A stretch of 63,993 nucleotides of DNA, filler included, from Dimargaris cristalligena (Eukaryota): NCBI GenBank assembly GCA_003614675.1. It is 4 parts of 4 records of this genome, joined end to end, with 100 filler letters (N's around TTAATTAATTAA, not from the genome) between each part and the next. Parts side by side here need not be neighbours in the genome. Positions count along the whole stretch, not along the records: positions 1 to 16,846 come from ML002828.1; 3 more parts are not named here. The stretch is one strand, 5' to 3'. Shown here piece after piece: positions 1 through 50,792 of this stretch. The first letter of the stretch is position 1; every line of letters begins with the position of its first letter. The notes under the pieces are model-generated. The model was not told the origin of the DNA and did no database searches. It saw only the letters and a program-made list of their open reading frames with translations. A program made the translations under genes and the position numbers.

Positions 1-340
1 CCCTTGCTGCCACCTCTTGGAACAGCAAGTCTATCATCACCTTTCCCTTTTATCACCTATCTTTTCGAGTAAAGTTCAGTTTTCAAGGATTTGAGTTCAG
101 TTCTTTACACCCCCTCAGTTTACTCAATAAACTCTATATATACTCACCCACCCCTGTATTAACCAAGTAAGTGTGTACCACTGCACATCCCTTATATAGT
201 TGCCATACTTGCCTTTATTGGGTTAGTACTACCCCATACCTGATGTTAGTAGCCCACTTGGCTGAGTCCCAGCCCTGCCTACCATTGGAAGCCTATCCCC
301 GGGACTCTTGACAGACTAAGAGTGGTTAATTTGGGTGACA
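1..340 (+). mobile_element. LTR-like repeat relic (3' part), CpG-depleted
   Basis: 108-340 aligns with 58290-58494 (aataaactctatata...gtaagtgtg..cactgcacatccct...gggactctt..agactaagagt..t.aa..tggg..aca). Contains AATAAA and both copies end in ACA. LTR identity is inferred. Confidence 0.6.
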
Positions 341-499
341 TTTACCTCATCAAATGGAGTTTTCATTGTACAGCCTTGTTGAACTACTCCCAGGTGGATT
401 AGATGGGCCAATAATTAGAATGTGTTAATCTTGTGAGTCTATTATGGGTACTCCATGTCTCTTTAAATGGATAACCTTACAGTAGGGGGAATATATTTT

Positions 500-2130
500 G
501 ATTATTAAATATCTTACTGAGAGGGGACTGTTCTGCATGGATTACTGAAAAATTAAATCTGGCAACAGAGAAGGTCTAGACAGCTAACTTTATCTTCATA
601 CTGGTGTAAGTAGTTCTCAGTACTATGTTGGCTAGTGCCCATGGACATGGACAAAAGTTTGGTCAGAATAGCTATAGTGAAACCTTAGGAGGCCTCAACA
701 CCATCACTGTGATAAGGACTGTGACTAGAGAAGTGATGGTGGTAATATTCATGGCAAAAATGGGTAAAGTAGAGCCAGTAGAGGTAGGGAAAGAGAGAGA
801 AAATACCCCTAATTAAAGCATCATATAATAATAGATGAGATAATTCACCTAAGATAATATATGTAGTATTTTTAGTCAAACTGAGCTGTAAATGTGCCTC
901 TTTATATATGGCATTACAATACTGAAGTGCACTCATTGATGGTCTTGCACCCACCAGCTTTCTCAGAAAGGTGATGGGGTATTACAGGATGGAGGGAGGA
1001 AGATTAGTCAAATTACAGGCATTAAAATTACCAGTGGTATAGATATTTGGTAAAACCAAAAGAGAATATGTAATCAAGCATAAGGATCTATAAAAGGATT
1101 TGGAAAATGGTACAAGGGATGCTAGAAGTACGATGCACACACTGGCAGAACAGGTGGTCTACCCCAACCGGACCACTGAGGATGGTTCCAAAGGATTGCA
1201 GGCCATCTGTGGTTTCAAGAAGGGGGGCGGTATCACATTACCTGATACATATATGTCCTAGTCAACTTGCTAAATGTAATTCACTGACCTTCATTTGATC
1301 TCCCCATTTATAATGAATGATATATTCACTTGTTACACGGGGGGTAGAAGTGGCTGGTATGTTAGATTAGCGAATGAAAGGAGTGGTTTTTACTAGAAAT
1401 GTATAGTGTGAAGTAAGTAATCAAGGGTATGAGTGGTATAAATACTAGTAAAAAATCATATGTAGCCAAGTTTGCCATTCTTGGATGACCGGGGTGTCTG
1501 AATGGTCGGACCCCTGGTTAATTGGATTCTTGGCCATATTGTTCTCTGGCGAGGGTACTATCTCATTATAATTGGCAAGGCTAGTCTCAGCCATAGTATA
1601 GGGATTTATACCTTCCTGACCACCTATTTTTGCGAGATTTTATTACACTAGGTAACAGGTGGGGAAGATAGATCTTGTGATTTATGCCCATTGTTATTGC
1701 CTCCACCAGCCAGTCCGGTATGGCATGATCTCCCCAATCCAATGCCCAATATAAATATCATGGGTGTTATCATACTTCCACAGTTCCATAATAATGCCTT
1801 TACTTATTATTTTGTTATAGACGGATAATAAAGTTAGGGGAAATAGCGTCTTACCAAACTATCTAAAACCAGTGGGTATGGTGGAAGTAGGAAACTGAAA
1901 GATGTGAAATATGACACTCCTCACTATCCATTTCAACTTTCAGTTTAACTTATTAAGTGATGGTTTGTTTTAATAATAAAAATTTCACTACGCAATAGCT
2001 GGTTTTTGGGCCAAGTCACCTTGCTGATGATGTGGAGGGGGTTCTTATGGGTAGTCCCTAGAATAAAGTCAGTGAGTGTAGTCAGCCAATTTTGGGAGGC
2101 AAGACAACCTAAGTTAGAAAATTAGCCATT
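500..2130 (+). repeat. Segmental direct duplication, copy A (paralogous to ~8815-10330)
   Basis: Colinear matches, e.g. aattcactgacct, tatggcatgatctcccca, catacttccacag, ttttgggaggcaag. One indel of roughly 170 bp. Confidence 0.9.
515..752 (-). pseudogene. Pseudogene copy of the small secreted Cys-rich prepropeptide at 8824-9072
   Basis: Starts MNITTITSLVTVLIT (cf. MKFTIITSLVAVLIA). Apparent frameshift plus premature stops; many differences are C>T/G>A. Confidence 0.85.
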
Positions 2131-2418
2131 ACCAGCAGCCTCTGTTAAAAATGACGTCCCGATGGGTCTATTATTATATCCTGTTTCTATCTAGTTTTGT
2201 TTGTTTATTGGGCAATTATATATTCTCTCATTTTAATTATTTAACATACCCGCTGTCAACTACACTATTCAATACAACTGACCATCTAAAAGCACCTACT
2301 ATCCTCTAGCTATATTCCTCCCTTCTGCACAGGTTTCTTGATACAATTTATTAATACCAACATTAGGTCCCGTGGTGGCCTTCGCCATTCCCCAAGATCT
2401 AAAAAAATATTGGTTAGG

Positions 2419-3894
2419 CTACCCTTTAAATGCTTTACATAGGACCGGCCATGCCGTCTTCGGGAATTGGCTTTGACTCTCAATCGACAGTGTATAATAA
2501 TCCAGAAGATGCCGCTCAATACTGTGTCGGAAAATCAGCCTTTTGAGATTAGACAACCGACAAGTTACCGAGATATTTCCCTGGAGAGGATTGCGGCTGC
2601 ACAGAATACAGAGAAACATCAGTGATTCACTATTCAACTCCCCATTGATAAAATCACTCAGCTCATCGAGACTGGTGAAGCTAAGCACCAGACTGCGCAA
2701 TTTGGTCCACTGGGGCAGCCAGTGGGCACACAACAAACCCATGGCGGGGCAGTTCGTGATACGTAGGTACCGTATATTGGGGGCATTTTGGGCCATTCGG
2801 GATGCCATTTGACTATTCAAGGGGAAGTGGCTGAGTATCAAGGATTCTAACTTGGGCCAGCGTTGTCCGATGATCTGAAGGAAACCTGCGGCCATTTTGT
2901 TCTGGTTTGTAAAATTCATTTGTGGGTCAAAAATAACTGGTGCTGTTGTAAAACCCAGGCGCTTTAAATTGGGGTAGTCAGTGGGGTTTAGGGCCCTGAA
3001 ATCCACAGGATCCTCTGCCTTAAATACGAATTGCAGGTGAAGGGCCGTCAAATTCCTAAAATTGATCTGGTTGGGGGAGTGGAAGATTGCACAGTCCCAA
3101 TTGATACTTCCTATTTGCAATGTAGTAAGACCGGGCCACTTCTGTATGATCGCCTGGGCCAACTGTCGATCGATGTTCGGCATAGTCAGAGATAGACATT
3201 TCAATCTTTTAAATGGTGCCAAAAACTGGAACAGCCAGGTCAAATCGATGGGAGTTTGACAGTCGAAGCAAAGTCTGGTAATACGGCCCAGGAACTTAAG
3301 CACCTTGGGGGAATGGCTGTAAAAGAAATCCGGCCAGCTCATTTCTGGAACACTATTCCCGCCCCAAATCACTCCGGGACTGTGGGTGATCGTGGTGATG
3401 GACATGGTGCGAGAGGGTGACCGCCAGGGAAGGTCGGCAGCGAGCTGTTCTATAATTCGGGGCCAGGATGAGGCAAGAGAGTTAACGTAGAAGTTGAGAC
3501 TCTTCCAATGGGTGACCTGTTTCAAGAAGTTGACGTGGCGGCGGTACAAGTACGGCCACTCTAAATTGAATACCGGCTCATCGGCTATCTTTATAGTCAG
3601 GTTCTGCAAGGCGTCCGGGTACTGGCGCGCGAGATTATGGTAAAACTCCGGTTGGTTATTTAATTCCGTCCATAGAACTCTTCGGAAACAGATTAAAGGG
3701 GACGCTTTCCTCCACCCCACCAGCCATTTCAGTGCTCGGCAAAGGACCCCTATGTTGCGTTGTTCCCAATCATTGCAGTGGCTTAGAATTTTCTTCCCTA
3801 GTTTATCGTACTCCGTGATGAATACATAGTGGAATAGTTCCCACCCGGCAGATGACGCGGCGGAGGAGTTATTGATGAATGGCGTATGGGACAT
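2419..3894 (-). CDS. F-box-like/leucine-rich-repeat protein, 491 aa, intronless
   Basis: LRR-like units (LKCLSL, LTTLQI, LTALHL, LKRLGF, LESLIL, LRSLVL) and a degenerate N-terminal F-box-like segment (KILSHCNDWEQRNIGVLCRALKWL). Clear paralog of 5797-7227. Confidence 0.8.
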   Translation of the reverse strand: MSHTPFINNSSAASSAGWELFHYVFITEYDKLGKKILSHCNDWEQRNIGVLCRALKWLVGWRKASPLICFRRVLWTELNNQPEFYHNLARQYPDALQNLTIKIADEPVFNLEWPYLYRRHVNFLKQVTHWKSLNFYVNSLASSWPRIIEQLAADLPWRSPSRTMSITTITHSPGVIWGGNSVPEMSWPDFFYSHSPKVLKFLGRITRLCFDCQTPIDLTWLFQFLAPFKRLKCLSLTMPNIDRQLAQAIIQKWPGLTTLQIGSINWDCAIFHSPNQINFRNLTALHLQFVFKAEDPVDFRALNPTDYPNLKRLGFTTAPVIFDPQMNFTNQNKMAAGFLQIIGQRWPKLESLILSHFPLNSQMASRMAQNAPNIRYLRITNCPAMGLLCAHWLPQWTKLRSLVLSFTSLDELSDFINGELNSESLMFLCILCSRNPLQGNISVTCRLSNLKRLIFRHSIERHLLDYYTLSIESQSQFPKTAWPVLCKAFKG

Positions 3895-4019
3895 AGTGGG
3901 GAAAGTAAATGGGGAAAACTGAACCTCGAACGGGTGGGGAATAAAGGCGAAAACAGTGATCGATAAGTTTCGATTTTAAAGAGTGGAAATTTAACGATGT
4001 GCGAGATTGGGGCGGTTGT

Positions 4020-4400
4020 TTGAACTTGCTTCGGAGAGGTTAGGTGGTAATGGTTAAATATTGATCAATTTACAGCCAACAAACTAAAAGGTGAGGAGAT
4101 GTGCAAATGGTGCGATATGGTTAATACCAAAGAATATAAGGTGGGCTGCTTTTATACCTCTCTTGGAGGTATAGATGATACCTTCGCTCACTTAACAATC
4201 GACTAAGCTTAAGGCCGTCAAGCCACTGGAAAGTTATTTATGAAAGGAAATTGCTGCAATTGCTACTATTCATGGAAAAGACACCGTCTGATTAAGAACC
4301 ACAATGTTTGGCCACTATCATACGGTGGAAGTATTATTACCAAGAACACTGTAAACAACGCTAATGGCATTTGAAGGATATCTGGTTAAGCTCTCATTCA
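4020..4400 (-). promoter_or_regulatory. Upstream region, inverted homolog of ~5280-5690, with TATA-like element
   Basis: gagatgtgcaaatggtgcgatatggttaa vs reverse complement of ttaactatatcgcaccattagcacatctc. TATAAAA lies at equivalent positions (~4150 minus, ~5551 plus). Confidence 0.75.
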
Positions 4401-4747
4401 AGGACGCCGTGGAACTCAACTTCCGGTTCCATAGAGTTCTGATTGCTGAACTACATCTTCCCCCGAGTGCCATTTAATGTGTTGGGTTTTTCAAGCGAAC
4501 ATATTGGTCGAGATTATACCCAATAAATTACACCATGTTAAGCATAATCCTATCCTTGCGGTTCTTTTCATATTTTATCCATTTTGGAATAACACCATTG
4601 AGAGAACCAGCGGTTATACGAACATTAATAGCAAAACGGAAGCACACTCAGCTATTATGACACGCACCACTTCAATGTGATAGATATTCATCAATCACCA
4701 GTCAACAAGAGCAGTGGTTAAGCCACTAATCCGTCGGAAGAGGGTTG

Positions 4748-4985
4748 TAATAATGAGACCGTTTCCCCCTAATAGATGGGACTCCACCGTTAATGACCAA
4801 TGACAATAGTTCAATATTGGGACAGTTAGTCTTGGAAGCCATTCTTTTTTCATTTTCTTTTGTCTATTGTAGTAGAGGGGCTTCCTCCCTCGCCTTTTTA
4901 CCCCGTATCTTCACTCTCGCTTTTCTGCACATAAGGCGCCCTTCCTACTTTTTCCCGTTGTATTCGGGTTCTATTTCGCCTATAT
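4748..4985 (-). repeat. Dispersed repeat fragment homologous to 56265-56495
   Basis: Reverse complement ggcttccaagactaactgtcccaatattgaactattgtcattggtcattaacggtggagtccc matches gctgcaaggctgactgtccctatatttgaatattatcattggttaataaaggtggagtccc. Confidence 0.8.
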
Positions 4986-5796
4986 CACGGCGACCAGTCT
5001 AATGGCCGCCCCTCATTACGTATCAAAATTGGCCAATAAAGTACTGTGCAGGTAATAATGAGTGACATTGGCTATTAAAGGCAGAGGGATCGCCTCTACA
5101 AGGGACACTGTCGCGATACTCCACCCCAGTACGTCGGTGGCTTTAACTCCAGTATTGTTGATTGGCGATTGATGAGCACCTGGCATTAGATTGTTGAATA
5201 TTTTGATGGCTGAGCAGGCTTTTATTCCGCCATTATACCACAATGGGATTGGTAATTGATGTGAAAGGCGTCGCTAAATAGGGGCTTGGCCAGACGTCCT
5301 TCAAATGACATGAGCGATTATAAAGCCCTTCGTAATAACACTCCCATTGTATTATGGTGGCCGGACGTTGTGGTTTTTTTTTTGTACTGGCTTTGTGAAG
5401 TGCCTCGATTCTATATCAGAGAGCGGTCATTTCATTGATGGTAGCAATCGCGGCAATTGCCATGTAGGATTGATTTGCCCTTGAATGGGTAGTCTTTAAC
5501 CCAACTGTCTGTACAATAAGCTGTGATGCCGAATATACCCCCCGGAGAGATATAAAACCGACCCACTTTTCTTTAGTTTTAACTATATCGCACCATTAGC
5601 ACATCTCATTTTCTAGTTTGTTTACCGCAAATTGGACGATCTCCTGCCATTGTCACTTAACTCCTTCGAAGTAAAAATTTAACCATCGCCCTATCCTATA
5701 TATTTTTAAACCTCTCCTTATCTACAATCATTTCACCACTATACGTGACCCGTTTGAGCTACAGCTTACCACGCTTTATCCCCAATTATAGTCCGT

Positions 5797-7227
5797 ATGT
5801 CCATCTCCCGTAACCCCACTCCCGCACCATCCCCCGGGTGGAAACTACTTCACTATGTATTCGACGCGGACCAAGCTGCAATAGGGGCCATCATTCTAGG
5901 CTATTGCAATTCTTTGGAACGATGCAATATAGGGATCCTATGTAGCTCGTTGTACTGGCTGATGGCGTGGAGAAACGGGAGCATGTCTACCTACAGGGAG
6001 ATAGTTTCCATGACGCGGATTAGTCAACGGCCGACTTATTACCGCCTTCTCGTGAGCAAGTACCCGGAAGCCCTGCAGAGCCTACTTTTTTCAACCGACA
6101 TTGAGCCCAGATTGGAATTAGAGTGGGAGAGTATGTTCCGCCGCCACGTCCACCTCCTGAATAGGGTCACCCACTGGAAGACTCTCACTTTCCACATCGA
6201 TTCCCTTGCCCCACTCTGGCCCCGGATCATGCACTATCTCGTTGATAACTTGCCTTGGTGGTTGCCTTCCCGCAACCTGCACATTATAACGGCCACCCAC
6301 TATCTCAAAGGTGATGGGTGCTGGTACCAGGTTGAACATAAGGACTGGTTAGGGTTATTTTATTATTGTTTCCCTCGTGTGGTCCAATTCCTAGGCCATA
6401 TTACCCGGCTTACTTTTAAGTGTCAGACCCCTATCGATAATGATTGGATGCTCCGGTTTCTAGCGCCCTTTACCGGGTTGAAGCAACTAAAACTAGAAAT
6501 CCCGATGATTAATCACCAGTTGACTCAGGAAATCGCACAACGCTGGCCCGGTCTCATCTCGCTAAGACTGAAAGGCAATTATTTGGCCAATCCAGTGGAA
6601 TTTGCCCCCAGTCTGGGTGCATTTAGAAACTTGACGACCCTCGATCTGGGGCTGATGGTTAGGGAGGGGGACCAAGTGGATTTGAGGGCCCTTAACCCCA
6701 CCGACTACCCCCATTTAAGGCGCCTGCTCTTGTGCGCCGCACTTACCCAAGAGTTCCAGGTACGAACCCCCGTTATATTGGATGGAATGTCCGTGGGCTT
6801 CCTCCAGTTCATCAGTCGGTGCTGGCCCCAGTTGAAATCCTTGACGCTCATGCGCATCTACTTGGATGGTCAAATGGCGGACCTGCTGGCAAAAAATGCC
6901 CCCAATCTACGTATTTTACGCATTATGAGTTGCCCTTCCATGGGTGATTTGTGTACCCAATGGCTGTCCAAATGTACTAATTTGCGCAATCTGGTGCTTA
7001 GTTTCACTGATAGCGAGGAGCTGGAGAGATTTGTGATAAATGGGCTTTATAGTGAAACATTGACGTTTCTCTGTATTATGACTTGTTATAATATACCGGA
7101 TACCTCCCGTTTGAATATTCGATTACCCAATATCGTAAGGGTAGTTTACCGGAATTTAATCAACCCACAGGCTCTATATTCTAACCCCGCTAATGTCGAA
7201 TTTCTATGCATGGACTCGGGGCTTTAG
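5797..7227 (+). CDS. F-box-like/leucine-rich-repeat protein, 476 aa, intronless
   Basis: Paralog of 2419-3894 (shared GW.L.HYVF, VTHWK.L.F, RALNPTDYP, NAPN.R.LRI..CP.MG.LC..WL). Confidence 0.8.
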   Translation: MSISRNPTPAPSPGWKLLHYVFDADQAAIGAIILGYCNSLERCNIGILCSSLYWLMAWRNGSMSTYREIVSMTRISQRPTYYRLLVSKYPEALQSLLFSTDIEPRLELEWESMFRRHVHLLNRVTHWKTLTFHIDSLAPLWPRIMHYLVDNLPWWLPSRNLHIITATHYLKGDGCWYQVEHKDWLGLFYYCFPRVVQFLGHITRLTFKCQTPIDNDWMLRFLAPFTGLKQLKLEIPMINHQLTQEIAQRWPGLISLRLKGNYLANPVEFAPSLGAFRNLTTLDLGLMVREGDQVDLRALNPTDYPHLRRLLLCAALTQEFQVRTPVILDGMSVGFLQFISRCWPQLKSLTLMRIYLDGQMADLLAKNAPNLRILRIMSCPSMGDLCTQWLSKCTNLRNLVLSFTDSEELERFVINGLYSETLTFLCIMTCYNIPDTSRLNIRLPNIVRVVYRNLINPQALYSNPANVEFLCMDSGL

Positions 7228-8823
7228 CTTCAATAACTCAAGAACTTGAATAGTTAATATTTAGTGGTGGTTTATCATTCTAACTCATTTTTTTCACTAG
7301 TAAACTGGTGGATTATTTACATATAAGATTTTAATTTCTTTCTTATTAAATTTACAATTGGATAGTGCCAGAAACTAAGCAATATCGGCATCCTTAGTAT
7401 TGATATTTATATAAATAATGGCTTTGCCATTATTTGAAGTTTGCAAGTTATTTTTCTTAAATACATTTTTGCTAATTTAGGGTATTCATCAATTATTATG
7501 AACAACGGATTCTCAACATTGAATTATATTATCGGCACTCAGGGCAATTGTATCACAGGCTATAGGCATTGGAACAGCTTTATATGCCGCGAAGACTAAG
7601 GGCATAGGCCTAGAACCAATATAATTTTTCCGGGAAATACTACTAATAAATATGATGAAGGTGTATCATAATGAAGACGGAATGATGAATAGTGAATATA
7701 GTGGTATTGAATAGGTGAATAGAGAAGTGTAAATTGCTGAAGGGAGCTGACTCGCTTACCTCCCGCTACTGAGCAAACTCAGTGATGACAGCTCTTACAA
7801 CCCCACTGAGGAGTTAGCGGTGAGCGCCTTGGTTATTGAGCATTGTAATAATTCGAAGACTCCCCCAGTATTGTTGAAATGTGGACATCTCTAATCACAT
7901 CCGAATCGACGTGTCTCTCTAGACATTAGCTGGAATATTATTAAGGATAGTGGTTGGGAACCTTTTATCTACGTCCCTGCCTTTAGTAGCTCGGAGTGGA
8001 TTCATTCTAGTGAAGTAGGCTCTGTCTTTGGCCTATGGGCTGGAGATAATCACTAACGGGATTGTTAAAAGAGCGTGACGTATGAGCGGTTTTTATTAAG
8101 GAAAGAATATAAGTGGTATAGACTTGCCGAAGCGATGTGAACGCTAGTAAACTGAAAAACAAGAGTACGCATCCGATGTTTATTTATATGGGCCGTAACA
8201 GGGATCCGGGAAAGCTAAGGAGGGTCAATAACATATTCATCGGACCTTCTGGAAAAGTGTTCTAGATGACGGAATTAGTGGTGTCCTCAGAGGGTGTCAA
8301 TTTACCAGGGGTCCCTATGCTAGACATATGTCGCTGGAATGAATCCTCAGTCAAAGATGCTACGGCTGGAACATCAGGATTAGTGGAATCCATGGGATCC
8401 AAAGGAACCTCGCTACTTTGATGCCCGGGGTCTGACCCTGTATTGGCTGCGGATGTAACAGGATAAAATGAAAATTCAAACCTAATTCTAGACCCTTATA
8501 GACACAGCCTCGATGGGCATTGCAGGAAAGCAATCAACACCGTTTATTACATTTATATCATTAAGTCCATACTTTGGCCGCATGGTTTGCCATATTTTCC
8601 CCATAACTAAGTATAGGGGAACATAGATGGAAGGCTCTTTAAGTAGTTATAATTGAGGACATGAAAGTGATCTACTTGGCGTTAATTTTTTAATATATAT
8701 ATATATATTTATATATACTCAGAATAGGACAGCTGGAATGTTTGAATCTCATAAGTCCTCTATGGGGACCCAATGTCTCTCTAGGCGGACAACCTTGCGA
8801 CGGGGGGTGCTAAATTTTGATTG

Positions 8824-9072
8824 TCAAGCTTCTTCATAATAGGCGAGTGTTCCGCACGGATCACTGAAAAACGAAATCCAGCAGCAGAAAAAGCCCAGAC
8901 AGCCGACCTCGTCTTCACGCCGGTGTAGGTGGTTTTCGGTGCCATGTTGGTTAGTGCCTATGGACGTGGGCGAAAGTTTAGCCAAACAGGCTGTCGGGCA
9001 ACCCTGGGGGGCTCCTGACACCGTCGCTGCAATAAGAACTGCGACTAGAGAAGTGATGATGGTAAACTTCAT
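8824..9072 (-). CDS. Small secreted Cys-rich prepropeptide, 82 aa
   Basis: Signal peptide MKFTIITSLVAVLIAATVSG, pro-region ending HRR, then EDEVGCLGFFCCWISFFSDPCGTLAYYEEA. TATAAAAA on the minus strand at ~9230. Confidence 0.8.
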   Translation of the reverse strand: MKFTIITSLVAVLIAATVSGAPQGCPTACLAKLSPTSIGTNQHGTENHLHRREDEVGCLGFFCCWISFFSDPCGTLAYYEEA

Positions 9073-10047
9073 GGTGAAAATGGGTAGAGTGGAGCTGGTG
9101 GAGGTAGGAAAAGGTATTAAAAACAAATGTTTGAATTTAACCGGCCGATAGTGATAAACGAGATATTGTACCTAAGAGGCGCGATGTGTATAATATTTCA
9201 AGTCAAACTGGGTCGGCGATGGACCTCTTTTTATATGGCGTTGTGATAATCAAGTGCGCTCATTGATGGTCTGATACTCCCCGGGCTTTCTCAACAGGGC
9301 TATGAGATACGCCGGGGAGAGGATGCAGGGAAAAATAATCAAGGCATTGAAAACACCGGCGGCATAGATATTTGGCAAAACCGAAAGAGGACATGCAACC
9401 AGGCATGAGGATCCATAAAGGATTTGGAAGGTGGTACAAGGGATGCTACAAGTCCGATGCACACGCTGGTCGAACAGGGCGTCTCCCCCAACTCGGCCGC
9501 CGAGAATGGACCTGAGGGATGGTAGGTCACCTGTGGATTGAAGGAGTAGACGGTATTGGGTTATCTGGTACATCCCTGTTCTAGTCGACTTGCTAAATAC
9601 AATTCACTGACCTCCATTTGATCACCCCGTTTATAATGAATGGTGTATTTCTTTATGACGCGGGGGTAGAAGCGGCTGGTCCATCTGGAAGCCGCCAGGT
9701 ACAAACCATAATCATACTTGGCCATAGAATAGGGGCTAATATCTTGTTAACCACCTATGTTCGCGTTATCTTGTTACACTAGGTAGCGGGTGGGGAAGGG
9801 TGGATATTGGGATTTATGCTCATTGCTATTGCCTTCACCAGCCATTCCAGTATGGCATGATCTCCCCAACCCAATCCCCAATATAAATGCCACAGACGGC
9901 ACCATACTTCCACAGGAATACCTTGGTTAAATATATTATTATAGCTGGGTAATTCAGTTGGGAGAAATGGCGTCTTGCCGAGCCATCTAAAATCAGAAAA
10001 TAGCTGGATGATGGAGGCGGGGAAATAATGGACGTGAAATACCCCGC

Positions 10048-10161
10048 ACCTTAACCTTCACTTTAACTTGCAGTTTTTTTATATAACCTTAACCTTCACT
10101 TTAACTTGCAGTTTTTTTATATAACCTTAACCTTCACTTTAACTTACAGTTTTTTTATATA
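10048..10161 (+). repeat. Tandem repeat, 3 x 38 bp
   Basis: Unit accttaaccttcactttaacttgcagtttttttatata starts at 10048, 10086 and 10124 (one g>a change in unit 3). Confidence 0.95.
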
Positions 10162-11602
10162 ATTAGCGAGCATTTCAAAAAATGATAAAAATAGCACCCG
10201 GAAACTAATTTTAGGGAAATGCTATCTTGCTGATGAGGTGGGGTGGGGTGGATTCTTTCGGATAGTCCCCAGAATGGGATCAGTGATTGAAGTCGGTACA
10301 TTTTGGGAGGCAAGCCTGCCCTAATTAATGAATTAGCCGCCTTGATACGATGGGGGCCGTTGGTCAAATGCCGAACTGTCCATTATAACGAACCCAGTAA
10401 GGAAATCCGCGTGGCTACTCCTACTGATTTTTGACGGATGGCCGCCACCAAGGTATTACTGAACAATGTATACACTTTCCCATAGTCGAGGACGGATGGA
10501 GCGAAATGTACCACCCTACCCACATGCACCAGCAGCCCCCCAATGCAACTGCCAATTCAGAGTACGGAAAGGGGTATACTGTTTGCTTTTATCGTTGGAA
10601 TGAAGCGCTGAATCACCCTCGCCTTCTCTCCGTAGCTTTTCAGACGACGACAGTTGTGCGGCCTATATATCGAACTGTACGAGGATGCTAAACAACCGGA
10701 CCCTCCCGCCAATACCGGGCGCACTCTCTTATTGCCCCCCTTCTAAGGTGGATTGTCGATCTTGGAGAGGATATAGAATTGCCTCCAGGTTGTCGTGGGT
10801 GATAAAATGCCGATTGGGAGAGGGGCAAGGGTGCTTATTTGTACAGCAGTATGTACGTGTATATATATACTGAAGGGTGATTTTATTCACGGGGAAGACT
10901 GCTGGACAGACCAATCATAGTGAATAGTGAGGAGGGAGATTCCAGTTGCCATCATTGGCCATGTGCGACCCTCTCTCTCTCTCACTTTATTCTCCTGACT
11001 ATCTTTTTTTCATCACGGCGATGGTGGCGATTGGCTAGGGGAGGATATAGCGCATGTACTCACCAACCAACTGCCCAGGCCTGATAATAGGTATGCTCCT
11101 CCTTCCCCAACCCCTCTCTCTGGCTCCTTCCTTTCCTCCCTTTCTTTCATTTTGTTTGGCCGTTGTGTGCGTGTTGGCATTGCCACTTGTTGATTCGTCA
11201 AGTTTGTGCTGCCTTAGTTATATATATATATATATATAGTTTACCCGTTGGACTCTCGGCGATCCATCCATCTCCTTGCATTTCCTCATACTTACGTAAG
11301 CCCAATAGATATATATTATATATATACTCGGCCCCCTTGTCTCTCTCCTCACTCTCTTTATTCCCCGTTCTTTTCCTTCTTACACTATCTATCTCTGCTC
11401 TTCTGGCACATACCAGTCCGTTCCCCTTTGCCTCCTCTAATACACCCCTATTTCTCGAGTTGATAGATAGTATAGTAGTGTAGTCGAGTGCCGCCACCTC
11501 TGCCCATTCTCTCCCTACTTCTTCTTCATTCTCTCATTGCCCGTCCTTATTTTTTTTTAAAAAATATCTATATATTCATTTCGTATTTCTTTGCGCATAG
11601 CC

Positions 11603-12546: not shown

Positions 12547-12695
12547 TATATGGGTGAAATTCGGCCCAGCTGTATAAGGGTTTGGGTTTAAATGATAAGT
12601 GTATGGGATAATAGGCGGGTGATTTATTTTCAACCAGTAATATTTGCCTCACCCAACGGATTTTTCGTTATACAGCTTGGATGAACTTCTCATAT
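12547..12695. mobile_element. MITE-like element copy 1 (~150 bp, ~28-bp imperfect terminal inverted repeats)
   Basis: atatgggtgaaattcggcccagctgtataa ... ttatacagcttggatgaacttctcatat. Homologous to 43842-43985 and 50878-51024. Confidence 0.75.
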
Positions 12696-14104: not shown

Positions 14105-16846
14105 CTATATATTTTGGGTGCGACAGAATTGGGCACTCATAGCCCCGTCGTCGTCATCCTGCACATAAATGGAGCCACGCGATCCTAGACCGAAAGTGCC
14201 GTTGGCACGTTGGATTTGGTCAGTGACAGTGCTATTACCCATAGCAGCGGAGCTATTCAAACTGGATGAGGGATCGGTATCCCCGGCCACCCGGGGGTCC
14301 AGGGCGGTCAGTTCAGTGGGGGTATATAGGAACTCTTCACCCGATTCCCAGCGGCGCCAGGCCTCGGCATAGCCCTTTTCAAGGTTGCGGGTCCAACGGG
14401 GGGTATCAAATAACCGGTTAGTATCGCGGTGCAAAAACAGATGCTTCCGCAAATTCATCACCGTGCCATGGCCCACTCGATGGTACTGGTTTGCGAGAGA
14501 TCCAAAACCAGTGGGGTCCTTGGCAGCCAATGTATGAACCGATGGCGGCGGTTCGGCCATGCGGGGAATGTAGTCGTAACGAACCGTTGTAGCTAGCTGG
14601 ACAGCAAGATCTTCATACTCCTGACCAGTCTGTACAATCATGGACTCTGCCAATCCGGTAGCGAGACATACACTGGCAGCTACCCGCGAGCATAGCTTGT
14701 GGTAGTTGCGGGGCCATGTCACAATGGGAGTGCCTGACCACAAAATATCTACCGCAGTAGTGTGGCCATTGCATTCGGGGGTATCTAGAAACACGTCAGC
14801 TACTCGGCCCCGGTGGATATGAACTTCTTTGGGAGCGACATCCGTGAAGACGATACGCTGGGCCACTGTAGGATCACCGGCATGCCACTGGAGGGCAGTG
14901 CGGGTGAGATGCTCTTTACCCGCCGCCGGGAAATTCAGGAGCCAGATAATCGACTTGGGCACCCGCACCAAAATCTTGATCCAGATCCGGAAAATAATTG
15001 GGTCGATCTTGTACAGCTGGTTAAAGTTGGCGAAAATAAACCAGTCGTCGGGGAATTGCGGGAAGAGCTCGTGGCGCATGGCCCAGCGCCGGTCTTGTTC
15101 GTAGAGCCAGCGGGTTTCCAGTTGGGCCTCGGTCATGTGGTCCGATAAGTGAAGATGACCGGGTGAGATATCATCCTTCTCACGGAAGCCCTGCCGGTGG
15201 TCGTCCACAAAGTAGCTATGGGGCATGTAGATCATACGTTCCGTATACACCCACTGGTCACTGTCTTCCTCGGGGTCCAGCTCCCCCTCATCCAGGGCAA
15301 GCTGTAGGGCAGGCTCAACCCCAGCCAGAGAAGCGGATAGGGCCAGTGTGCCCGTATCCGACAACCCTAGTGTGGTGGTGGTTGTGGGGGGGAGCTCACT
15401 ATTGGCACTGCCAGCGGCCATTTTCTGATGTTGCTCCTGGCGGCGCTTGTACCAGAGTTCGGGCTGTACCGTGTCTTGTGGGCATACGATAGGGTCAGTG
15501 ACGAACCAGTCGGTCCATTGGGCGCCAAGGGTACCGGCAAATCCCATGTAGCTGATTTGGACGGGCGCGGGACGGGCCGCAAACACTTCATTACGGGCCC
15601 CCTTAGTGTACCCATTCAAATTGATCAAAATATGGATCTGGTCCTGTAGGACCCGTTCGATGATGTCCTTCGTGGCCCAGCTGGACACGTCCAGGAATAC
15701 ATCGGCCTCTCGTTCAATCTTCTGGCGGTAGGGCGAGTGATCCGACGCGGTGGTGGCATAGCAGTAGACTCTAAAGCGGTTACGGTTGTGGAACCCAAAG
15801 ACCGACTGCATCAAATGGGACAAAGGGTGGTTATTGAAATCAGACGAAATGTAGCCTAGGCGGAGGTGGGGGTTAGGCGGGGGCGGGGGCCGGTATACAG
15901 TGGGGGGGAGCCAGGGTGACGTGAGAGCTGCGTGGGAGATTCGCAAACCGTTGCGGTGTGAAATGAGACGAACTTGGCGACCGTCCAGTGGGTAGGTGAA
16001 GGTATGGAATGGCAGGACCGTGGGTAGAGGCGGGGTCGGTAGGGGAGGTAAGGCGGGTCGGGCATAACGCCGGGCCACCTCCTCAGGGGCCAGGTTCACC
16101 TCCCCACGGTGGTACATGTCGATATACCAACGGCGCTGTACCCAGCGGATACACCGTTCCACCACCCGGATGCACCACCCGCCTTCGTTGCGAATAGTGG
16201 ACCGTAGGTAGTCGAGCTGGCGCTGAACAGCTGCCGATGGTGACAGCGGCGCCGAAGAAGCGGAAGGGGAGCGGAGCCCCGACTGTTGCTGTTGAAGAAG
16301 CCGATACCAGTAGTGGAGCTTGCATCGCAGAGGTACTGCTTCGCTATCCGGACCAAAAGCAGTAAGAATCCCAGCTAGGAAGGTGCTGAGGGCGACAGCC
16401 GAACCACTGGTAACGGTACTGGCGGTGGCGGGGAACACGGTACCTTTGCCATAATCTTGTCCTTCTTGAAGTTGCCGAGCGACAATGGCCACCACCTTGT
16501 CCATCCATCCGAACGCGCCTATTTCAACGGATGCCTGGTCGGGACTCAACGAGTAAATAGACTTGGCGGCGACAATACGGTAGAGCTTGAGGGTCACTTT
16601 GTCGGATGCCGCACCTGCATTAGTACTTCCGCGGAGGGCGGGGTCGACGACGACAAGAATACCGCTCTTACTGCCCGTCCGCCCACGCCAATCACAGACA
16701 CCACTGAGGGCATTGGCCATGCCGCATAGAGCATCGACAAAGTCGGGGTTTTCCTCGACAGCCCGGATGTAATACTGCACGCTGTCCTGTACCCTACCCA
16801 TATCTTTAACGGCGTTACCCAGGTTGGCGTAGGCCACGTCGAATTT
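14105..16846 (-). CDS. OGT: O-GlcNAc transferase (GT41, OGT/SEC-like), 5'-truncated at the assembly gap
   Basis: Last TPRs (AYANLGNAVKDMG..), DFNNHPLSHLMQSV, ILINLNGYTKGARNEVFAARPAPVQ, NFNQLYKIDP, DTPECNGHTTAVDILWSGTP. Confidence 0.95.
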   Translation of the reverse strand, partial: KFDVAYANLGNAVKDMGRVQDSVQYYIRAVEENPDFVDALCGMANALSGVCDWRGRTGSKSGILVVVDPALRGSTNAGAASDKVTLKLYRIVAAKSIYSLSPDQASVEIGAFGWMDKVVAIVARQLQEGQDYGKGTVFPATASTVTSGSAVALSTFLAGILTAFGPDSEAVPLRCKLHYWYRLLQQQQSGLRSPSASSAPLSPSAAVQRQLDYLRSTIRNEGGWCIRVVERCIRWVQRRWYIDMYHRGEVNLAPEEVARRYARPALPPLPTPPLPTVLPFHTFTYPLDGRQVRLISHRNGLRISHAALTSPWLPPTVYRPPPPPNPHLRLGYISSDFNNHPLSHLMQSVFGFHNRNRFRVYCYATTASDHSPYRQKIEREADVFLDVSSWATKDIIERVLQDQIHILINLNGYTKGARNEVFAARPAPVQISYMGFAGTLGAQWTDWFVTDPIVCPQDTVQPELWYKRRQEQHQKMAAGSANSELPPTTTTTLGLSDTGTLALSASLAGVEPALQLALDEGELDPEEDSDQWVYTERMIYMPHSYFVDDHRQGFREKDDISPGHLHLSDHMTEAQLETRWLYEQDRRWAMRHELFPQFPDDWFIFANFNQLYKIDPIIFRIWIKILVRVPKSIIWLLNFPAAGKEHLTRTALQWHAGDPTVAQRIVFTDVAPKEVHIHRGRVADVFLDTPECNGHTTAVDILWSGTPIVTWPRNYHKLCSRVAASVCLATGLAESMIVQTGQEYEDLAVQLATTVRYDYIPRMAEPPPSVHTLAAKDPTGFGSLANQYHRVGHGTVMNLRKHLFLHRDTNRLFDTPRWTRNLEKGYAEAWRRWESGEEFLYTPTELTALDPRVAGDTDPSSSLNSSAAMGNSTVTDQIQRANGTFGLGSRGSIYVQDDDDGAMSAQFCRTQNI

Positions 16847-16946
16847 NNNNNNNNNNNNNNNNNNNNNNNNNNNNNNNNNNNNNNNNNNNNTTAATTAATT
16901 AANNNNNNNNNNNNNNNNNNNNNNNNNNNNNNNNNNNNNNNNNNNN
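16847..16946. other. Artificial contig spacer (100 nt, Ns plus TTAATTAATTAA six-frame stop linker)
   Basis: Identical structure at 33784-33883 and 50693-50792. Confidence 0.97.
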
Positions 16947-19295: not shown

Positions 19296-21872
19296 TTAAT
19301 AGTTATGGCGGGGCTTAAGTTCGGCAATCGCATCATTCATTTTATTGACAACTTTTTGAACCAGCGTGTTGCGAACCAAATAATTCATGGAACCATCCTG
19401 ATGAAGCGAGTCCAATCCAAGGGTCACCACTCCCGCATCCATGGATGCCGCGGTGAGTGACACGTCCTTGGCACTATCACGGTCATTGAAGGGCGAAGCC
19501 GGGGGCCGGACCCATAGGGTCACCTGTCCACTGGCCACGATAGACCAATCGACCGGGGCCACCGTGAAGGCGACCTGCAATATCCGGCCCAAAGCCACAC
19601 AGCGAGCCGTATCCGCCTCCCCCACCAAATCGCCCAAGGCCTGGATATGATCGGCCGGTAGGGGATCCCCTCCGTACCGATTGTACAGCACAAGGGCCAC
19701 ACAGGCGCGTTCTGCCGGGGTTAACGACACTGAGCCCGAGGCCAACACCGGGTAGGCCGACGCTGTGACGGTACGACTGCCCTGGCCACCGGCGAATAGG
19801 GCCAGGCCAGCGGCACTGTCGAGGTTGGCATCGCCAGAGGTGACCAAATTAGCGGTGGTCAGGGCGGCCCAGAGTGCGCGGGATGTCGAGGTGAGTGGGT
19901 GGGATTGTGATTGGGCCGGGATGGTGGCGGAAGCGCTGAGTAAGTGGTAGTGGTAGTCAATGAGTTGGATCCACCGGCGAAGGGCGGCTATCCACGCTTG
20001 GGGCGGGTCGGTCGCCGTCGTAGAAGTGGAAAGGCGGGCAGTGCGGATTGCTCGAATGGCCTCTACCAGTGGGTCCTGATCCCACGACCACCAAGTTGGT
20101 TTCGGGGCCAAGCCTAGAGCCCGAGTCTGGCGTTGTAGGTACAGACCCTCCTCCTCCTCTTTATTCGCCGGGTTACTATTACTGCTAGAGGAGGCCAACA
20201 TGCCAATATCCGCCCCCGGGCGAGGAATTGCGGATAAGAGAGTGGCCAGTACGCCCTGCTGAACCCCCGATTCCGAAAAATACACCCGATCCACCGCGCT
20301 CGACAGCCACGGCTCCAAACTACGTACCAAGAAACACACCGCTGGGATCATCTTCGCCCGCCGTTTACTGATGCCGGGGATTTGTTTCAGCTTCTTAAAT
20401 TTAAATTCCTTGTCCTCTTCGATCCGTCGGACCAGCTCCAGGAAATCGGGTCGACTCAAACTGTACCCGTGCACGATGGGGATGGGTTCATTGCGCGTGT
20501 GAATGGCAATGTAGGCTAGGGCCCGGAACCCGCCGCCGGAGAGATACAGGTTGCGGCCCAGGGTGGCATTTTGGCGGTGGCGCGGGCGGCGATGCTTATG
20601 CCGACGAGTCGAGGCGGCCGTCACGGCGGCGGCCGCAACGGGATCGGCCTTCGATTGGATAGCGGTCAGAATTTCCGAAGCCAGTTTCTGATGGGCCTTC
20701 TTTTCGGGATTAGCATCGAGGCGCTGGGTCAGTACGGCGGCACCGTAGGGGAAGGAATAAAACTGATCCACAGGTACCTGGCCATCATCAGTATAATTGT
20801 CGTTGGATGGCGTGGCAGGTTCAGGTAACGGATGAGACAGAAACGAATCGATCGGATCGATGATCGCTTCCTGATCATTACTGTAGGCCGCTTCGTATTG
20901 ATTAGCCGCTAGTTCGAGACTACCGCCACCCAAATCCATCGTAAAACCATCGAGTTCCGTGAAGCCCGACTGAATCCCCAGTGAAGTAAAATAACTTTCC
21001 TGTTCGGAGGCGATGGTCTGAATCAGCCAACCCGCGGGATCCCAGGCGTACTGAAAACCCACTGGACTCGGCTCCACTGCAGCCACGGTTGTTGACGCGA
21101 ACGACGACGCCAAGCCAGACGACACTGGTGAAAAGGTAGCTGGTTCCCCACCACCACCACTACCACTACCACCGTGGGACCGCGTGGCCTCTCGGATACG
21201 ATTGATCAATTCCAATCGATTGGTGGCTACCCGGGTTGCCTCCGTGGCGACAATGCTAATGGCCTGGACGCGGAATTGCGTGCAAATGGCCTGGAAATAA
21301 GTGAACGTATCGACCACCTGCTGGATAACCGCTTCAGGGATGAACCGCTTAGACGGGTCGGCCGGGTCGGGCACCAGTTCGGCGCTGAGGGAAATGGGGG
21401 CCCGTTGCCGATAGAGGACGGGGAAGTGCCGCAGTGAGGTCAAGGCCCCCTCCTCGCGGGTGAGGTGGGAGGGGCCACCGCCATGGTTGCCGGAGGCCTG
21501 GTGGAAACCATAAATACCGAGACGGATACCGTTGGAACCCATATCCACAATGGCAAACGGAGGTCGTACCAATGTGACGGGGCAGGCGACCATAGTAGCA
21601 GCAGTAGGGTCGGAATCCATAGTTGTGGACGAACCTAGCTGTGGGATGGTAGAGGCGGCTGCTGGTTGAAGGAATGCCGGCGGCGGTGGTGTACAATACA
21701 ACGAGGAAGGAAAGAAGCCCAAAGGGGCGACCGTCGGGGAATGGGTAGTAGAAAAGGGCGAAACCGAAGCAGAAGCTGGGGTGACGAAGAAGTCCGAGGA
21801 AAAAAGGGGAAACGAGCAAGGTCCAACTAATAATACAAGGGACCTCAGCAAGAGGTGGGCAAGTGGCCCCAT
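19296..21872 (-). CDS. RTG2: Ppx/GppA-family protein, retrograde regulation protein 2-like (alternative start at 21620)
   Basis: FAIVDMGSNGIRL, IVATEATRVATN, MDLGGGSLEL, SFPYGAAVLT, LYLSGGGFRAL, VYFSESGVQQG. Confidence 0.85.
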   Translation of the reverse strand: MGPLAHLLLRSLVLLVGPCSFPLFSSDFFVTPASASVSPFSTTHSPTVAPLGFFPSSLYCTPPPPAFLQPAAASTIPQLGSSTTMDSDPTAATMVACPVTLVRPPFAIVDMGSNGIRLGIYGFHQASGNHGGGPSHLTREEGALTSLRHFPVLYRQRAPISLSAELVPDPADPSKRFIPEAVIQQVVDTFTYFQAICTQFRVQAISIVATEATRVATNRLELINRIREATRSHGGSGSGGGGEPATFSPVSSGLASSFASTTVAAVEPSPVGFQYAWDPAGWLIQTIASEQESYFTSLGIQSGFTELDGFTMDLGGGSLELAANQYEAAYSNDQEAIIDPIDSFLSHPLPEPATPSNDNYTDDGQVPVDQFYSFPYGAAVLTQRLDANPEKKAHQKLASEILTAIQSKADPVAAAAVTAASTRRHKHRRPRHRQNATLGRNLYLSGGGFRALAYIAIHTRNEPIPIVHGYSLSRPDFLELVRRIEEDKEFKFKKLKQIPGISKRRAKMIPAVCFLVRSLEPWLSSAVDRVYFSESGVQQGVLATLLSAIPRPGADIGMLASSSSNSNPANKEEEEGLYLQRQTRALGLAPKPTWWSWDQDPLVEAIRAIRTARLSTSTTATDPPQAWIAALRRWIQLIDYHYHLLSASATIPAQSQSHPLTSTSRALWAALTTANLVTSGDANLDSAAGLALFAGGQGSRTVTASAYPVLASGSVSLTPAERACVALVLYNRYGGDPLPADHIQALGDLVGEADTARCVALGRILQVAFTVAPVDWSIVASGQVTLWVRPPASPFNDRDSAKDVSLTAASMDAGVVTLGLDSLHQDGSMNYLVRNTLVQKVVNKMNDAIAELKPRHNY

Positions 21873-33783: not shown

Positions 33784-33883
33784 NNNNNNNNNNNNNNNNN
33801 NNNNNNNNNNNNNNNNNNNNNNNNNNNTTAATTAATTAANNNNNNNNNNNNNNNNNNNNNNNNNNNNNNNNNNNNNNNNNNNN
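33784..33883. other. Artificial contig spacer
   Basis: Ns plus TTAATTAATTAA. Confidence 0.97.
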
Positions 33884-43562: not shown

Positions 43563-43841
43563 GGCGAACGGAGCTGGGTGGGTGGGGGTGGGAGGAAGAG
43601 GGGGATTGGTGATAATGGTAATGTAGAGGAAATAGGCCGGACGGAAGAATAGGTGGAAGGAGAGGAGGGTAAATAAATGGTGGATGAGGGAGGGAGGGGG
43701 TCCAAATAATGATATTATGAGAGAGATACCCTTAGGCTAGGAGCACGAAGAAAAAAGAACAGTAGATATATATCTATCAACAGGCACATCAACGCAGGGG
43801 TGAGATTAGGTGGGTAAATGGGAGGGAGACGTGGTGTATTT

Positions 43842-43985
43842 ATATGGAAGAAATTCAAACCAGCTGTATAAGGTTTTACATAATATGTGTATGGATGAAT
43901 ATATGCGAGAATATCTTTTAACCAGTAATATTGGCTTCATCCAATGGATTTTGCGTTATACAGCCTGAATGAACTTCTCCCATAT
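43842..43985. mobile_element. MITE-like element copy 2
   Basis: atatggaagaaattcaaaccagctgtataa ... ttatacagcctgaatgaacttctcccatat; internal aaccagtaatatt shared with copy 1. Confidence 0.75.
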
Positions 43986-50692: not shown

Positions 50693-50792
50693 NNNNNNNN
50701 NNNNNNNNNNNNNNNNNNNNNNNNNNNNNNNNNNNNTTAATTAATTAANNNNNNNNNNNNNNNNNNNNNNNNNNNNNNNNNNNNNNNNNNNN
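50693..50792. other. Artificial contig spacer
   Basis: Ns plus TTAATTAATTAA, preceded by a poly-C contig end. Confidence 0.97.

Follow-up and report, generated by a model that had tools for sequence, protein, structure and literature searches.

Results

The DNA analyzed here (the window; 63,993 nucleotides) comes from Dimargaris cristalligena (Zoopagomycota) and consists of four contigs with spacers of the form N44-TTAATTAATTAA-N44 between them; its position 1 is a contig end. The first 10 kb of the window hold a block of repeats (1-392), a decayed segment (copy A; 418-2127, plus strand), an intact 518-aa ORF (2419-3975, minus strand), a 489-aa ORF that is its partner (5758-7227, plus strand) and the paralogue of copy A (copy B; 8736-10338, plus strand). 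Neither the 518-aa nor the 489-aa ORF had a match in Pfam. An Atlas match of the pair was F-box-like and is taken as a lead only.

The observed/expected ratio (o/e) of CpG is bimodal. Three islands, 5.7 kb together, have values of 0.05-0.20 and the other 58 kb have 0.81, the depleted fraction being ~9% of the DNA sampled (64 kb) and the rest having near-normal CpG. Island 1 (1-2250) comprises the repeats at 1-392 and copy A. Island 2 (50793-51750; 3 CpGs, o/e 0.09) lies at the start of the fourth contig, and island 3 is found at 56250-58750 (5 CpGs, o/e 0.05). Members of repeat families are present in all three CpG-poor islands of the 64 kb sampled. The 81 low-GC (<0.45) 250-bp bins beyond the islands have a mean CpG o/e of 0.80, and low GC or non-coding status alone is therefore insufficient for CpG depletion. 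TG+CA is raised in islands 1 and 2 (o/e 1.12-1.15). Island 1, with a TG+CA o/e of 1.12 and a TA o/e of 1.06, displays neither CpA depletion nor TpA excess. The CpGs that survive within islands are in a TCG context in 12 of 50 cases (24%), compared with 1440 of 5400 (27%) outside (p = 0.74).

At the left end of the window, CpGs occur at positions 66, 300 and 1131, and the preliminary description of this DNA was accurate in reporting none within 302-1130. The CpG-free run (300-1131; 831 bp) is the second longest of the whole window; an o/e of 0.8, typical of the window, predicts ~22 CpGs for it, and none was observed (Poisson P = 2.6e-10). It had also been proposed that CpGs return past ~1130. 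The first one does stand at 1131, but depletion continues beyond it, with o/e still at 0.2-0.5 up to ~2250. Across the first three kilobases, moving off the repeat block, CpG o/e is 0.05, 0.35 and 0.52. A tail of the island into the 518-aa gene (2500-3250, CpG o/e 0.5-0.7) was considered and dropped, because the comparison with the paralogue gave no net asymmetry there, and the island border was placed at ~2250 for this reason.

Repeat content of the islands

The preliminary description placed an LTR relic at 1-340. This part of the window is repeat DNA, found up to 392 in tens of different contexts per sequencing run, but three high-copy pieces make up this mosaic: copies elsewhere end at ~109, 340 and 392, which indicates that three repeats abut here. 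The contig end cuts the element, and no ORF of >=130 aa was found in 1-2400. There was likewise none of that size within 56250-58750, and a scan for ORFs of >=50 aa across 55500-59400 gave none >110 aa within island 3.

The first piece, R0 (1-109), is the end of a very high-copy repeat located at the contig end. Between 43 and 71 contigs per run match it at position 69, and 21 contigs of run X5 depart from the window sequence after 109. Summed depth, which does not equal copy number, is 78,000-338,000 in bin 1-347 and 50-490 in unique bins. R1 (111-340), the supposed LTR-like element, has a second copy on a different contig, in island 3 (copy b; 58290-58489), to which 111-266 and 289-335 match with 76-83% identity. 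Both copies are without CpG or almost so, and many contigs branch off after 329-342. Copy b has TA opposite TG/CA of copy a at nine sites, and the reverse holds at three, a difference that is not significant (p = 0.15).

R2 is a small MITE-like repeat, represented at 340-396 by a fragment and elsewhere by copies at 12547-12691, 43841-43985 and 50879-51020 (reverse strand), the last of these within island 2. In each run, 16-32 contigs branch off after 392 and 9-15 have the remaining R2 ahead of 340. The copies outside islands have 4 and 2 CpGs and those inside have none; solitary copies retain their CpGs. Of the two R3 copies, copy a (4745-5058) lies outside the islands and has 13 CpGs, while copy b (56188-56494) is mostly in island 3 and has 3. 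CpG in copy a is opposite TG, CA or TA in copy b at eight sites, versus two in the opposite direction. The repeat adjoining copy B (8060-8700) has a CpG o/e of 0.79 and, together with the intact CpGs of solitary R2 copies, demonstrates that the presence of a repeat alone is insufficient for CpG loss. Rfam (gathering threshold) and ARAGORN searches of the whole window returned 0 matches, so R1 and R2 are not recognizable as tRNA- or RNA-derived.

Comparison of copy A with copy B

BLAST aligned 418-2127 with 8736-10338 in three blocks of 72-73% identity, and the full alignment has 1410 columns at 73.1% identity. The pair is an old duplication, ~27% diverged, in which A is the dead copy of a 1.7-kb segment, with indels, a repeat insertion and stop codons. 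Its read depth is that of single-copy DNA. A stretch found only in A (1366-1580, a gap in B) overlaps a piece of a dispersed repeat (1460-1593; a 134-bp match with 21 differing letters), and depth is raised in bin 1389-1735.

Copy B was rightly described as CpG-rich at 8830-9450; over its length it has a normal CpG content, with 60 CpGs (o/e 0.73) compared with 13 in copy A (o/e 0.21), a TG+CA o/e of 1.03 and a TA o/e of 0.93. None of the 31 CpGs of B that lie opposite A 418-1130 is kept, the present dinucleotides being 12 CA, 8 TG, 5 TA and 6 others. Opposite 1131-2127, 4 of 24 are kept (p = 0.03 for the difference in retention). CpG in B corresponds to TG, CA or TA in A at 44 sites, and the reverse at 2. 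Tabulation of the aligned copies by context, the check that had been proposed for this locus, gave a one-sided result, with 50 transitions in CpG context from B to A and 3 the opposite way (p = 6e-12).

Six example changes cited earlier (ccga>ctaa and others) are all present in the alignment. The accompanying claim that changes are strongly C>T/G>A stands only as to direction: the asymmetry is 2.6:1 in 418-1130, where transitions number 103 versus 40 and transversions 57, and 2:1 in the whole alignment (174 versus 87, with 118 transversions), for a transition/transversion ratio of 2.2 (261:118). Changes per site follow the order CpG (0.45), CpA (0.30), CpT (0.20) and CpC (0.17). Outside CpG, transitions toward AT in A number 124 versus 84 (CpA, 57 versus 34; CpT, 31 versus 20). 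Transversions cannot be produced by deamination, and they are similarly asymmetric, with 46 GC>AT versus 22 AT>GC in A. The non-CpG asymmetry is consequently not specific to deamination. We therefore rejected a specific second step from CpA to TpA at 1-2250, which the preliminary description had postulated; the raised TG+CA (1.12) also speaks against it.

The neighboring pair of paralogues that contains the 518-aa and 489-aa ORFs (2419-4420 and 7260-5250) served as a control and is symmetric, with 207 versus 194 transitions and 79 versus 84 CpGs. Given this symmetry and the depletion of R2 and R3 copies only in islands, with copy B untouched, CpG loss follows place rather than duplication, in agreement with the one-sided, location-bound loss first proposed.

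It had further been claimed that the decay killed a secreted-peptide gene. The sequence in question is an 82-aa ORF of copy B (8824-9072, minus strand) with, by eye, a signal-peptide-like start and 6 Cys. Its remnant in A (504-752, minus strand) does carry a frameshift, along with 3 in-frame stops relative to B. The ORF is an orphan: a word-indexed search gave no candidate homologue, a comparison with 1.84 billion representatives gave 0 matches at E <= 0.001, and it is absent from a protein collection that includes the annotated GT41 protein of the same contig. Between B and A there are 37 non-synonymous and 13 synonymous changes, by estimate about the neutral ratio. As far as sequence comparison can tell, then, constraint on coding is not evident in the 82-aa ORF, and the claim of a killed gene was not upheld.

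Differences between isolates

Contigs of run X5, from a second study, provided a second isolate. Relative to the window, it has 33 differences over 1491 bases of copy A (307-1797) and 12 over 1927 bases of copy B (odds ratio 3.6, p = 6e-5); in 1793-6885 there are 47 over 5090 bases. The positions listed cover 21 of these 33 and 12 of these 47; for differences in 307-1797 that hit a CpG, whether extant or ancestral, a lower bound of 8 of 33 is accordingly obtained. In 887-2331, 11 of 33 listed differences are on a CpG of one isolate, although CpG bases make up ~3% of the sequence (odds ratio 21, p = 7e-10). About half of the ~22 CpG dinucleotides in this interval differ between the isolates, compared with <1% of nearby unique DNA. 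At one ancestral CpG (1263/1264, with B as outgroup), the two isolates carry changes on different strands, and 4 of 6 polarized recent CpG losses are, by eye, at TCG. This polarization relies on an outgroup that is 27% diverged, and some apparent gains of CpG (three or four) could be losses polarized wrongly. Non-CpG divergence between the isolates is also raised in copy A. The loss is CpG-specific, one-sided and island-bound, and it has been active recently.

Discussion

We favor the explanation that CpG methylation is limited to repeat-rich islands and is followed by deamination of 5-methylcytosine (5mC), and assign it a probability of roughly 0.65. A methylation-linked CpG mutator had been put forward in the preliminary description and best explains the data. 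The interval 1-2250 is one of three or more repeat-rich islands of these contigs where mutation is far faster than elsewhere at CpG sites and at practically no others. CpG cytosines would be methylated in repeat-associated silent chromatin only, and spontaneous deamination of 5mC to thymine would turn CpG into TG or CA. Copy A would have lost its CpGs because it is situated in such an island, flanked by the repeats at 1-392 and bearing the piece at 1460-1593, and copy B, 8 kb off in normal DNA, would have kept them. The process is independent of duplication and is active still or was until very recently. Methylation is the probable cause, and it appears to have spread out of the repeats into the unique flank. 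Consistent with 5mC decay are the TG/CA products, the limitation of loss to repeat-bearing segments and the recent hypermutability of CpG among the listed differences. CpG methylation by itself does not explain the non-CpG GC>AT excess of copy A or its raised divergence between isolates, which we provisionally attribute to lost constraint and AT-biased drift.

That methylated repeats decay by CpG>TpG change is established for other fungi (PMC4352252, PMC13297926). In Microbotryum, rusts and Tuber, which have DNMT1/Masc2- or DNMT5-type enzymes, decay of methylated TEs (Amselem et al. 2015, PMC4352252) resembles the present case in CpG-specific C>T change in repeat-rich DNA, TG/CA excess and CpG-normal genes. 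It differs in that TE consensus comparisons were used there, while here a unique flank was followed through a paralogue and a second isolate, and in the Zoopagomycota species, where the decay is known from sequence. RIP-like TpCpG hypermutation in Pucciniomycotina (Horns et al. 2012, PMC3318451) likewise involves C>T change at repeat CpGs outside Ascomycota, but surviving CpGs here display no detectable TCG preference. CpG depletion of the vertebrate type shares the chemistry and the TG/CA signature (PMC13297926), although here it is limited to ~9% of the sampled DNA.

Leakage of classical RIP, as in Neurospora crassa and at AvrLm6 and the LmCys effectors of Leptosphaeria maculans (PMC2973834), also mutates single-copy DNA beside a high-copy repeat and fades over ~1 kb, and in both systems an ORF for a small, secreted, cysteine-rich protein is the candidate victim. 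Classical RIP differs from the present locus, however, in its near-exclusive C:G>T:A change (here there are 118 transversions, a modest transition/transversion ratio, and 87 of 261 transitions run opposite), in its target, CpA rather than CpG, with TpA excess (TG+CA is 1.12 and TA 1.06 in 1-2250), and in mutating both copies (B is unaffected at o/e 0.73).

The pattern of CpG loss is most likely an ordinary footprint of DNA methylation, not a new genome-defence system. It had been presented as an unusual mode of genome defence, but both CpG>TpG decay and RIP leakage are already published (PMC4352252, PMC3318451, PMC2973834), the signature being textbook in vertebrates and on record for basidiomycete and Tuber transposons. 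A sharp, still-active island decay of CpG in a mycoparasite of the Dimargaritales nevertheless suggests repeat-targeted CpG methylation in this lineage, now or very recently, and our literature search found no prior description of repeat-island CpG decay for Zoopagomycota. A literature search for papers on methylation in D. cristalligena found none. In favor of methylation, a CDCA7-type protein, of a family that co-occurs with DNMT1 and HELLS, is reported for other Kickxellomycotina, Coemansia and Linderina (bioRxiv 10.1101/2023.01.30.526367). Against it, a 2026 review, in its passages on early-diverging fungi, describes them as almost without 5mC and reliant on 6mA, and those passages do not name Zoopagomycota (PMC13297926). 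The intervals 1-2250 and 8736-10338 are the exact loci at which a methylome would give a yes-or-no answer.

An unlikely alternative to island-limited methylation is enzymatic, repeat-triggered hypermutation directed at CpG, acting on the repeats at 1-392 and leaking ~1-2 kb into the unique flank. It would be akin to the RIP-like process inferred in Pucciniomycotina. RIP leaks into single-copy flanks elsewhere (PMC2973834), and such an activity would fit the graded recovery of CpG (o/e 0.05, 0.35, 0.52; 0 of 31 versus 4 of 24 kept) and the polymorphism of about half of the ~22 CpGs in 887-2331 amid unique DNA that is <1% different. Of the 6 polarized recent losses, the 4 at TCG point the same way, but surviving CpGs have no detectable trinucleotide bias (24% versus 27%, p = 0.74). 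In island 3, which has a TA-rich signature at 58001-58500, three bins of 250 bp have a TA o/e of 1.6-1.8 and a TG+CA o/e of 0.56-0.71, and R1 copy b has the TA excess noted above; yet TA-rich, CA-poor bins exist outside islands too, the R1 count (9 versus 3) is not significant, and 1-2250 is without CpA depletion or TpA excess. The transition/transversion ratio is a mere 2.2, and solitary R2 copies beyond the islands are unaffected. The ratio of CpG to non-CpG rates here, 15-20 fold, is also within reach of a passive process: in mammals, passive 5mC deamination gives a range that encompasses 15-20 fold, and the vertebrate ratio is of the same order.

Bolder, and slightly more doubtful, is the idea of an active, repeat-nucleated CpG mutator, an enzymatic, RIP-like defence outside Dikarya now spreading into unique flanks and erasing neighbor genes. 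The interval 1131-2250, with its CpGs half-polymorphic between isolates, would then be its moving front and the TA-rich blocks of island 3 its end state.

It is improbable that no special mutator is involved, with A drifting neutrally as a pseudogene and selection or GC-biased gene conversion preserving or raising the CpG and GC of B. In its favor, the old A/B changes are not polarized by any true outgroup, the asymmetry reaches non-CpG transitions (124 versus 84) and transversions (46 versus 22), and the indels, repeat insertion and stop codons of A are those of a pseudogene. Presumably neutral low-GC DNA elsewhere in the window is at o/e 0.80 (81 bins), however, which argues that neutral drift here does not strip CpG. 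The 82-aa ORF in B seems unconstrained, making selection for CpGs over 1.6 kb unlikely. Isolate differences in A are ~20-fold enriched at CpG, and R2 and R3 copies lose CpGs alike when other copies of their families are the reference.

An artefactual origin, through assembly, amplification or contamination, is barely credible: although the feature is located at a contig end and the assembly may itself derive from 4 of the 5 runs with the locus, 303-8265 is matched with 0 differing letters by contigs of X1, X2 and X4, A and B are on a single contig in X1 and X2, and X5, from a separate study, has the CpG-poor copy A too, ~2% different.

CpG loss in copy A

We have found an excess of CpG to TpG/CpA changes that is island-bound, CpG-specific, one-sided and recently active, and that lies beside and among high-copy repeats. 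CpG loss is a real, statistically solid feature of copy A (418-2127), the CpG-poor member of a paralogous pair in which copy B (8736-10338) is CpG-normal. CpGs occur at 66, 300 and 1131 with none in between, and at the window's normal observed/expected ratio (o/e) ~22 would be expected in the 300-1131 run (P = 2.6e-10). The copies were paired by self-BLAST at 72-73% identity in three blocks (418-1358 with 8736-9680, 1590-1946 with 9721-10076, and 2020-2127 with 10226-10338), and a MAFFT alignment gave 73.1% identity over 1410 comparable columns. Copy B holds 60 CpGs (o/e 0.73) and copy A 13 (o/e 0.21), which bears out the one-sided loss claimed in the preliminary description. None of the 31 copy B CpGs opposite 418-1130 is kept, and these sites now read CA (12), TG (8), TA (5) or other (6). 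Opposite 1131-2127, 4 of 24 are kept (p = 0.03 for 4 of 24 versus 0 of 31) and 17 are now CA, TG or TA. The depletion does not end at 1130 and reaches ~2250 (250-bp bins, o/e 0.2-0.5). Transitions with C/G in copy B and T/A in copy A number 174, versus 87 in reverse (103 vs 40 in 418-1130; 71 vs 47 beyond), with 118 transversions. The core of the first description is thus right, but the asymmetry, at 2-2.6 to 1, is not near-total. A tandem ~38-bp unit, present three times at 10048-10162 in copy B, is missing from copy A.

Repeats at the contig end and elsewhere

Positions 1-340 had been taken for an LTR relic. This is indeed high-copy repeat DNA, with position 69 covered by 43-71 contigs per run; however, tens of contigs turn to unrelated sequence past ~109, 329-342 and 392, and 1-392 is therefore a mosaic of three abutting high-copy pieces, in which nothing indicates an LTR. 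On the fourth contig, 58290-58489 resembles 111-335 at 76-83% identity. A MITE-like family of ~140 bp (R2), high-copy in the public runs, occurs at 12547-12691, 43841-43985 and 50879-51020 and as a fragment at 340-396, and has an internal inverted repeat (GCTGTATAA ... TTATACAGC). Sequence is single-copy from 303 on, save for small depth bumps and a dispersed 134-bp piece (1460-1593) that overlaps a stretch missing from copy B. Just upstream of copy B, 7982-8675 is moderately repeated, with 2-4 contigs in each run resembling it at 80-90%. Contigs of runs X1, X2 and X5 skip 7 bases at 1452-1460, and an X5 contig (record 25) carries 114 additional bases at 1452/1453 relative to the window. The variation at 1452/1453 is a structural polymorphism inside the A-specific insertion.

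Regional distribution of CpG loss

Besides island 1 (1-2250), CpG-poor islands were found at 50793-51750 (island 2; 3 CpGs, o/e 0.09) and 56250-58750 (island 3; 5 CpGs, o/e 0.05). The 58 kb outside the islands has a CpG o/e of 0.81, and low-GC bins there (n=81) average 0.80. The CpG content of repeat copies follows their location. The repeat R3 has 13 CpGs at 4745-5058 versus 3 at 56188-56494, with 8 CpG>TG/CA/TA changes versus 2 in reverse; R2 copies outside islands have 4 and 2 CpGs and the island copy 0, and the CpG common to both outside copies is TG and CA in 50879-51020 and 340-396. CpGs of solitary R2 copies are unaffected. The moderately repeated stretch 8060-8700 beside copy B has an o/e of 0.79, so some repeats in this genome lack CpG depletion, and repeat status alone is insufficient for CpG loss. 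In an adjacent inverted paralogue pair taken as control, the 518-aa and 489-aa ORFs, transitions are symmetric (207 vs 194) and CpG counts are 79 vs 84. This symmetry, and the tracking of island location by R2 and R3 losses, uphold the earlier proposal that mutation does not act on the duplication itself. The loss affects CpGs specifically, depends on region and does not depend on the A/B duplication.

CpA changes and a possible RIP-like process

We consider it improbable that a RIP-like process underlies the CpG loss. The per-site share of C/G sites in copy B that read T/A in copy A is 0.45 for CpG, 0.30 for CpA, 0.20 for CpT and 0.17 for CpC, and in the opposite direction 0.20, 0.18, 0.11 and 0.18, respectively. 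Non-CpG transitions are in excess in copy A (124 vs 84, p = 0.007). Transversions, which deamination cannot produce, show a similar asymmetry (GC>AT 46 vs AT>GC 22, p = 0.005), and the non-CpG part is therefore taken to reflect a general drift towards AT in a copy that is dead. Region 1-2250 has raised TG+CA (o/e 1.12) and normal TA (o/e 1.06), the reverse of what CpA>TpA change would leave, and the proposed second step at CpA is not supported. No trinucleotide bias was detected among surviving CpGs (p = 0.74). Within island 3, bins 57001, 58001 and 58251 have TA o/e of 1.6-1.8 and TG+CA o/e of 0.56-0.71, and the pattern of 57001-57250 and 58001-58500 looks like CpA>TpA (or CAG/CTG>TAG/CTA) change atop CpG loss. 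Bins of this kind also occur outside islands. The island 3 copy of the repeat R1 reads TA where 111-340 has TG/CA at 9 sites versus 3 in reverse (p = 0.15). Both 57001-57250 and 58001-58500 are rich in CTAG, TTAG and CTAA.

Differences between isolates

Run X5, from a second study, carries the copy A locus with differences from the window at 33/1491 bases in 307-1797, compared with 47/5090 in 1793-6885 and 12/1927 in copy B (copy A vs copy B: odds ratio 3.6, p = 6e-5). Among the X5-only differences listed in 887-2331 (n=33, a subset of all), 11 fall on a CpG of either isolate, 5 in the window and 6 in X5; CpG bases make up ~3% of this region (odds ratio 21, p = 7e-10). Outgroup comparison with copy B polarised 28 of the 30 listed differences up to 2134, of which 16 are C>T/G>A, 7 are T>C/A>G and 5 are transversions. 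Because copy B is 27% diverged, the polarity may be wrong for 3-4 apparent CpG gains. At the ancestral CpG 1263/1264, opposite strands were hit in the window isolate and X5. Whether strains or alleles are being compared may depend on ploidy, as D. cristalligena is described in a review as possibly non-haploid (PMC10386755). CpG decay visible between two isolates is a useful addition.

Proposed mechanism and comparison with other fungi

An ordinary process, the methylation-type decay of CpGs in repeat islands, most likely explains the loss, which here occurs in a member of the Dimargaritales. The islands would be CpG-methylated silent chromatin, and the CpG changes 5mC deaminations. Methylation may reach past the repeats into the unique flank, or may also be seeded by the 1460-1593 piece; this reading is partly supported because CpG recovery is graded at 3 of 4 island edges, over 0.4-1.5 kb, and CpG retention differs between 418-1130 and 1131-2127. 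The CpG decay of the D. cristalligena islands resembles that of transposons in Microbotryum, rusts and Tuber, where CpG-signature decay is attributed to Masc2/DNMT1-type methylation and deamination (PMC4352252). A TCG-specific RIP-like pattern is described in Pucciniomycotina (PMC3318451). RIP leakage extends at least 930 bp from the repeat border in N. crassa and into single-copy effector genes in L. maculans (PMC2973834). A CDCA7-type protein, of a family that co-occurs with DNMT1 and HELLS, is present in Coemansia and Linderina (bioRxiv 10.1101/2023.01.30.526367). No report on D. cristalligena methylation or CpG decay was found in the literature covered by our searches.

Coding potential of the paralogues

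The mutation had also been described as killing one copy of a secreted-peptide gene. The ORF concerned in copy B (8824-9072, reverse strand; 82 residues) has, by eye, a signal-like hydrophobic start and six cysteines. A word-indexed protein search returned no homologue; the ORF is missing from that protein collection, in which the same contig's annotated GT41 protein is present. A search of 1.84 billion representative proteins (E <= 0.001) also gave no match. Over 83 codons (82 + stop), comparison with copy A gave 37 non-synonymous and 13 synonymous differences, roughly neutral by our estimate, and the ORF therefore bears no sign of past constraint. The copy A remnant has one frameshift and three in-frame stops; in reading order the frameshift precedes the stops, and a copy B CpG underlies only one of them (TCG>TAA), which required a second change. 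These results do not support the killing of a gene.

Sequence sources and gene content

The analysis was based on the 64 kb of sequence from Dimargaris cristalligena (Zoopagomycota, Kickxellomycotina) and on contigs from public runs, and contigs of four runs were mapped to 1-10400 at 80% likeness. Position 1 is a contig end, and N44-TTAATTAATTAA-N44 spacers at 16847-16946, 33784-33883 and 50693-50792 join four contigs; matches such as 111-335 with 58290-58489 therefore lie between contigs and not within one locus. The control ORFs (518 aa, 2419-3975, reverse strand; 489 aa, 5758-7227, forward strand) are intact and share 62-65% DNA identity, varying with the aligner. No Pfam match was found for either, and the proteins that a language model groups with them are of the F-box or F-box/LRR type, which serves as a lead only. 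Long reverse-strand ORFs without internal stops encode a Zn2Cys6 fungal transcription factor (1407 aa, 23615-27838), a Ppx/GppA-domain protein (861 aa, 19296-21881) and a GT41 O-GlcNAc transferase (14105-16846). The top database match of the last is P0001, a D. cristalligena protein according to NCBI, whose full 502 residues align to 14108-15811.
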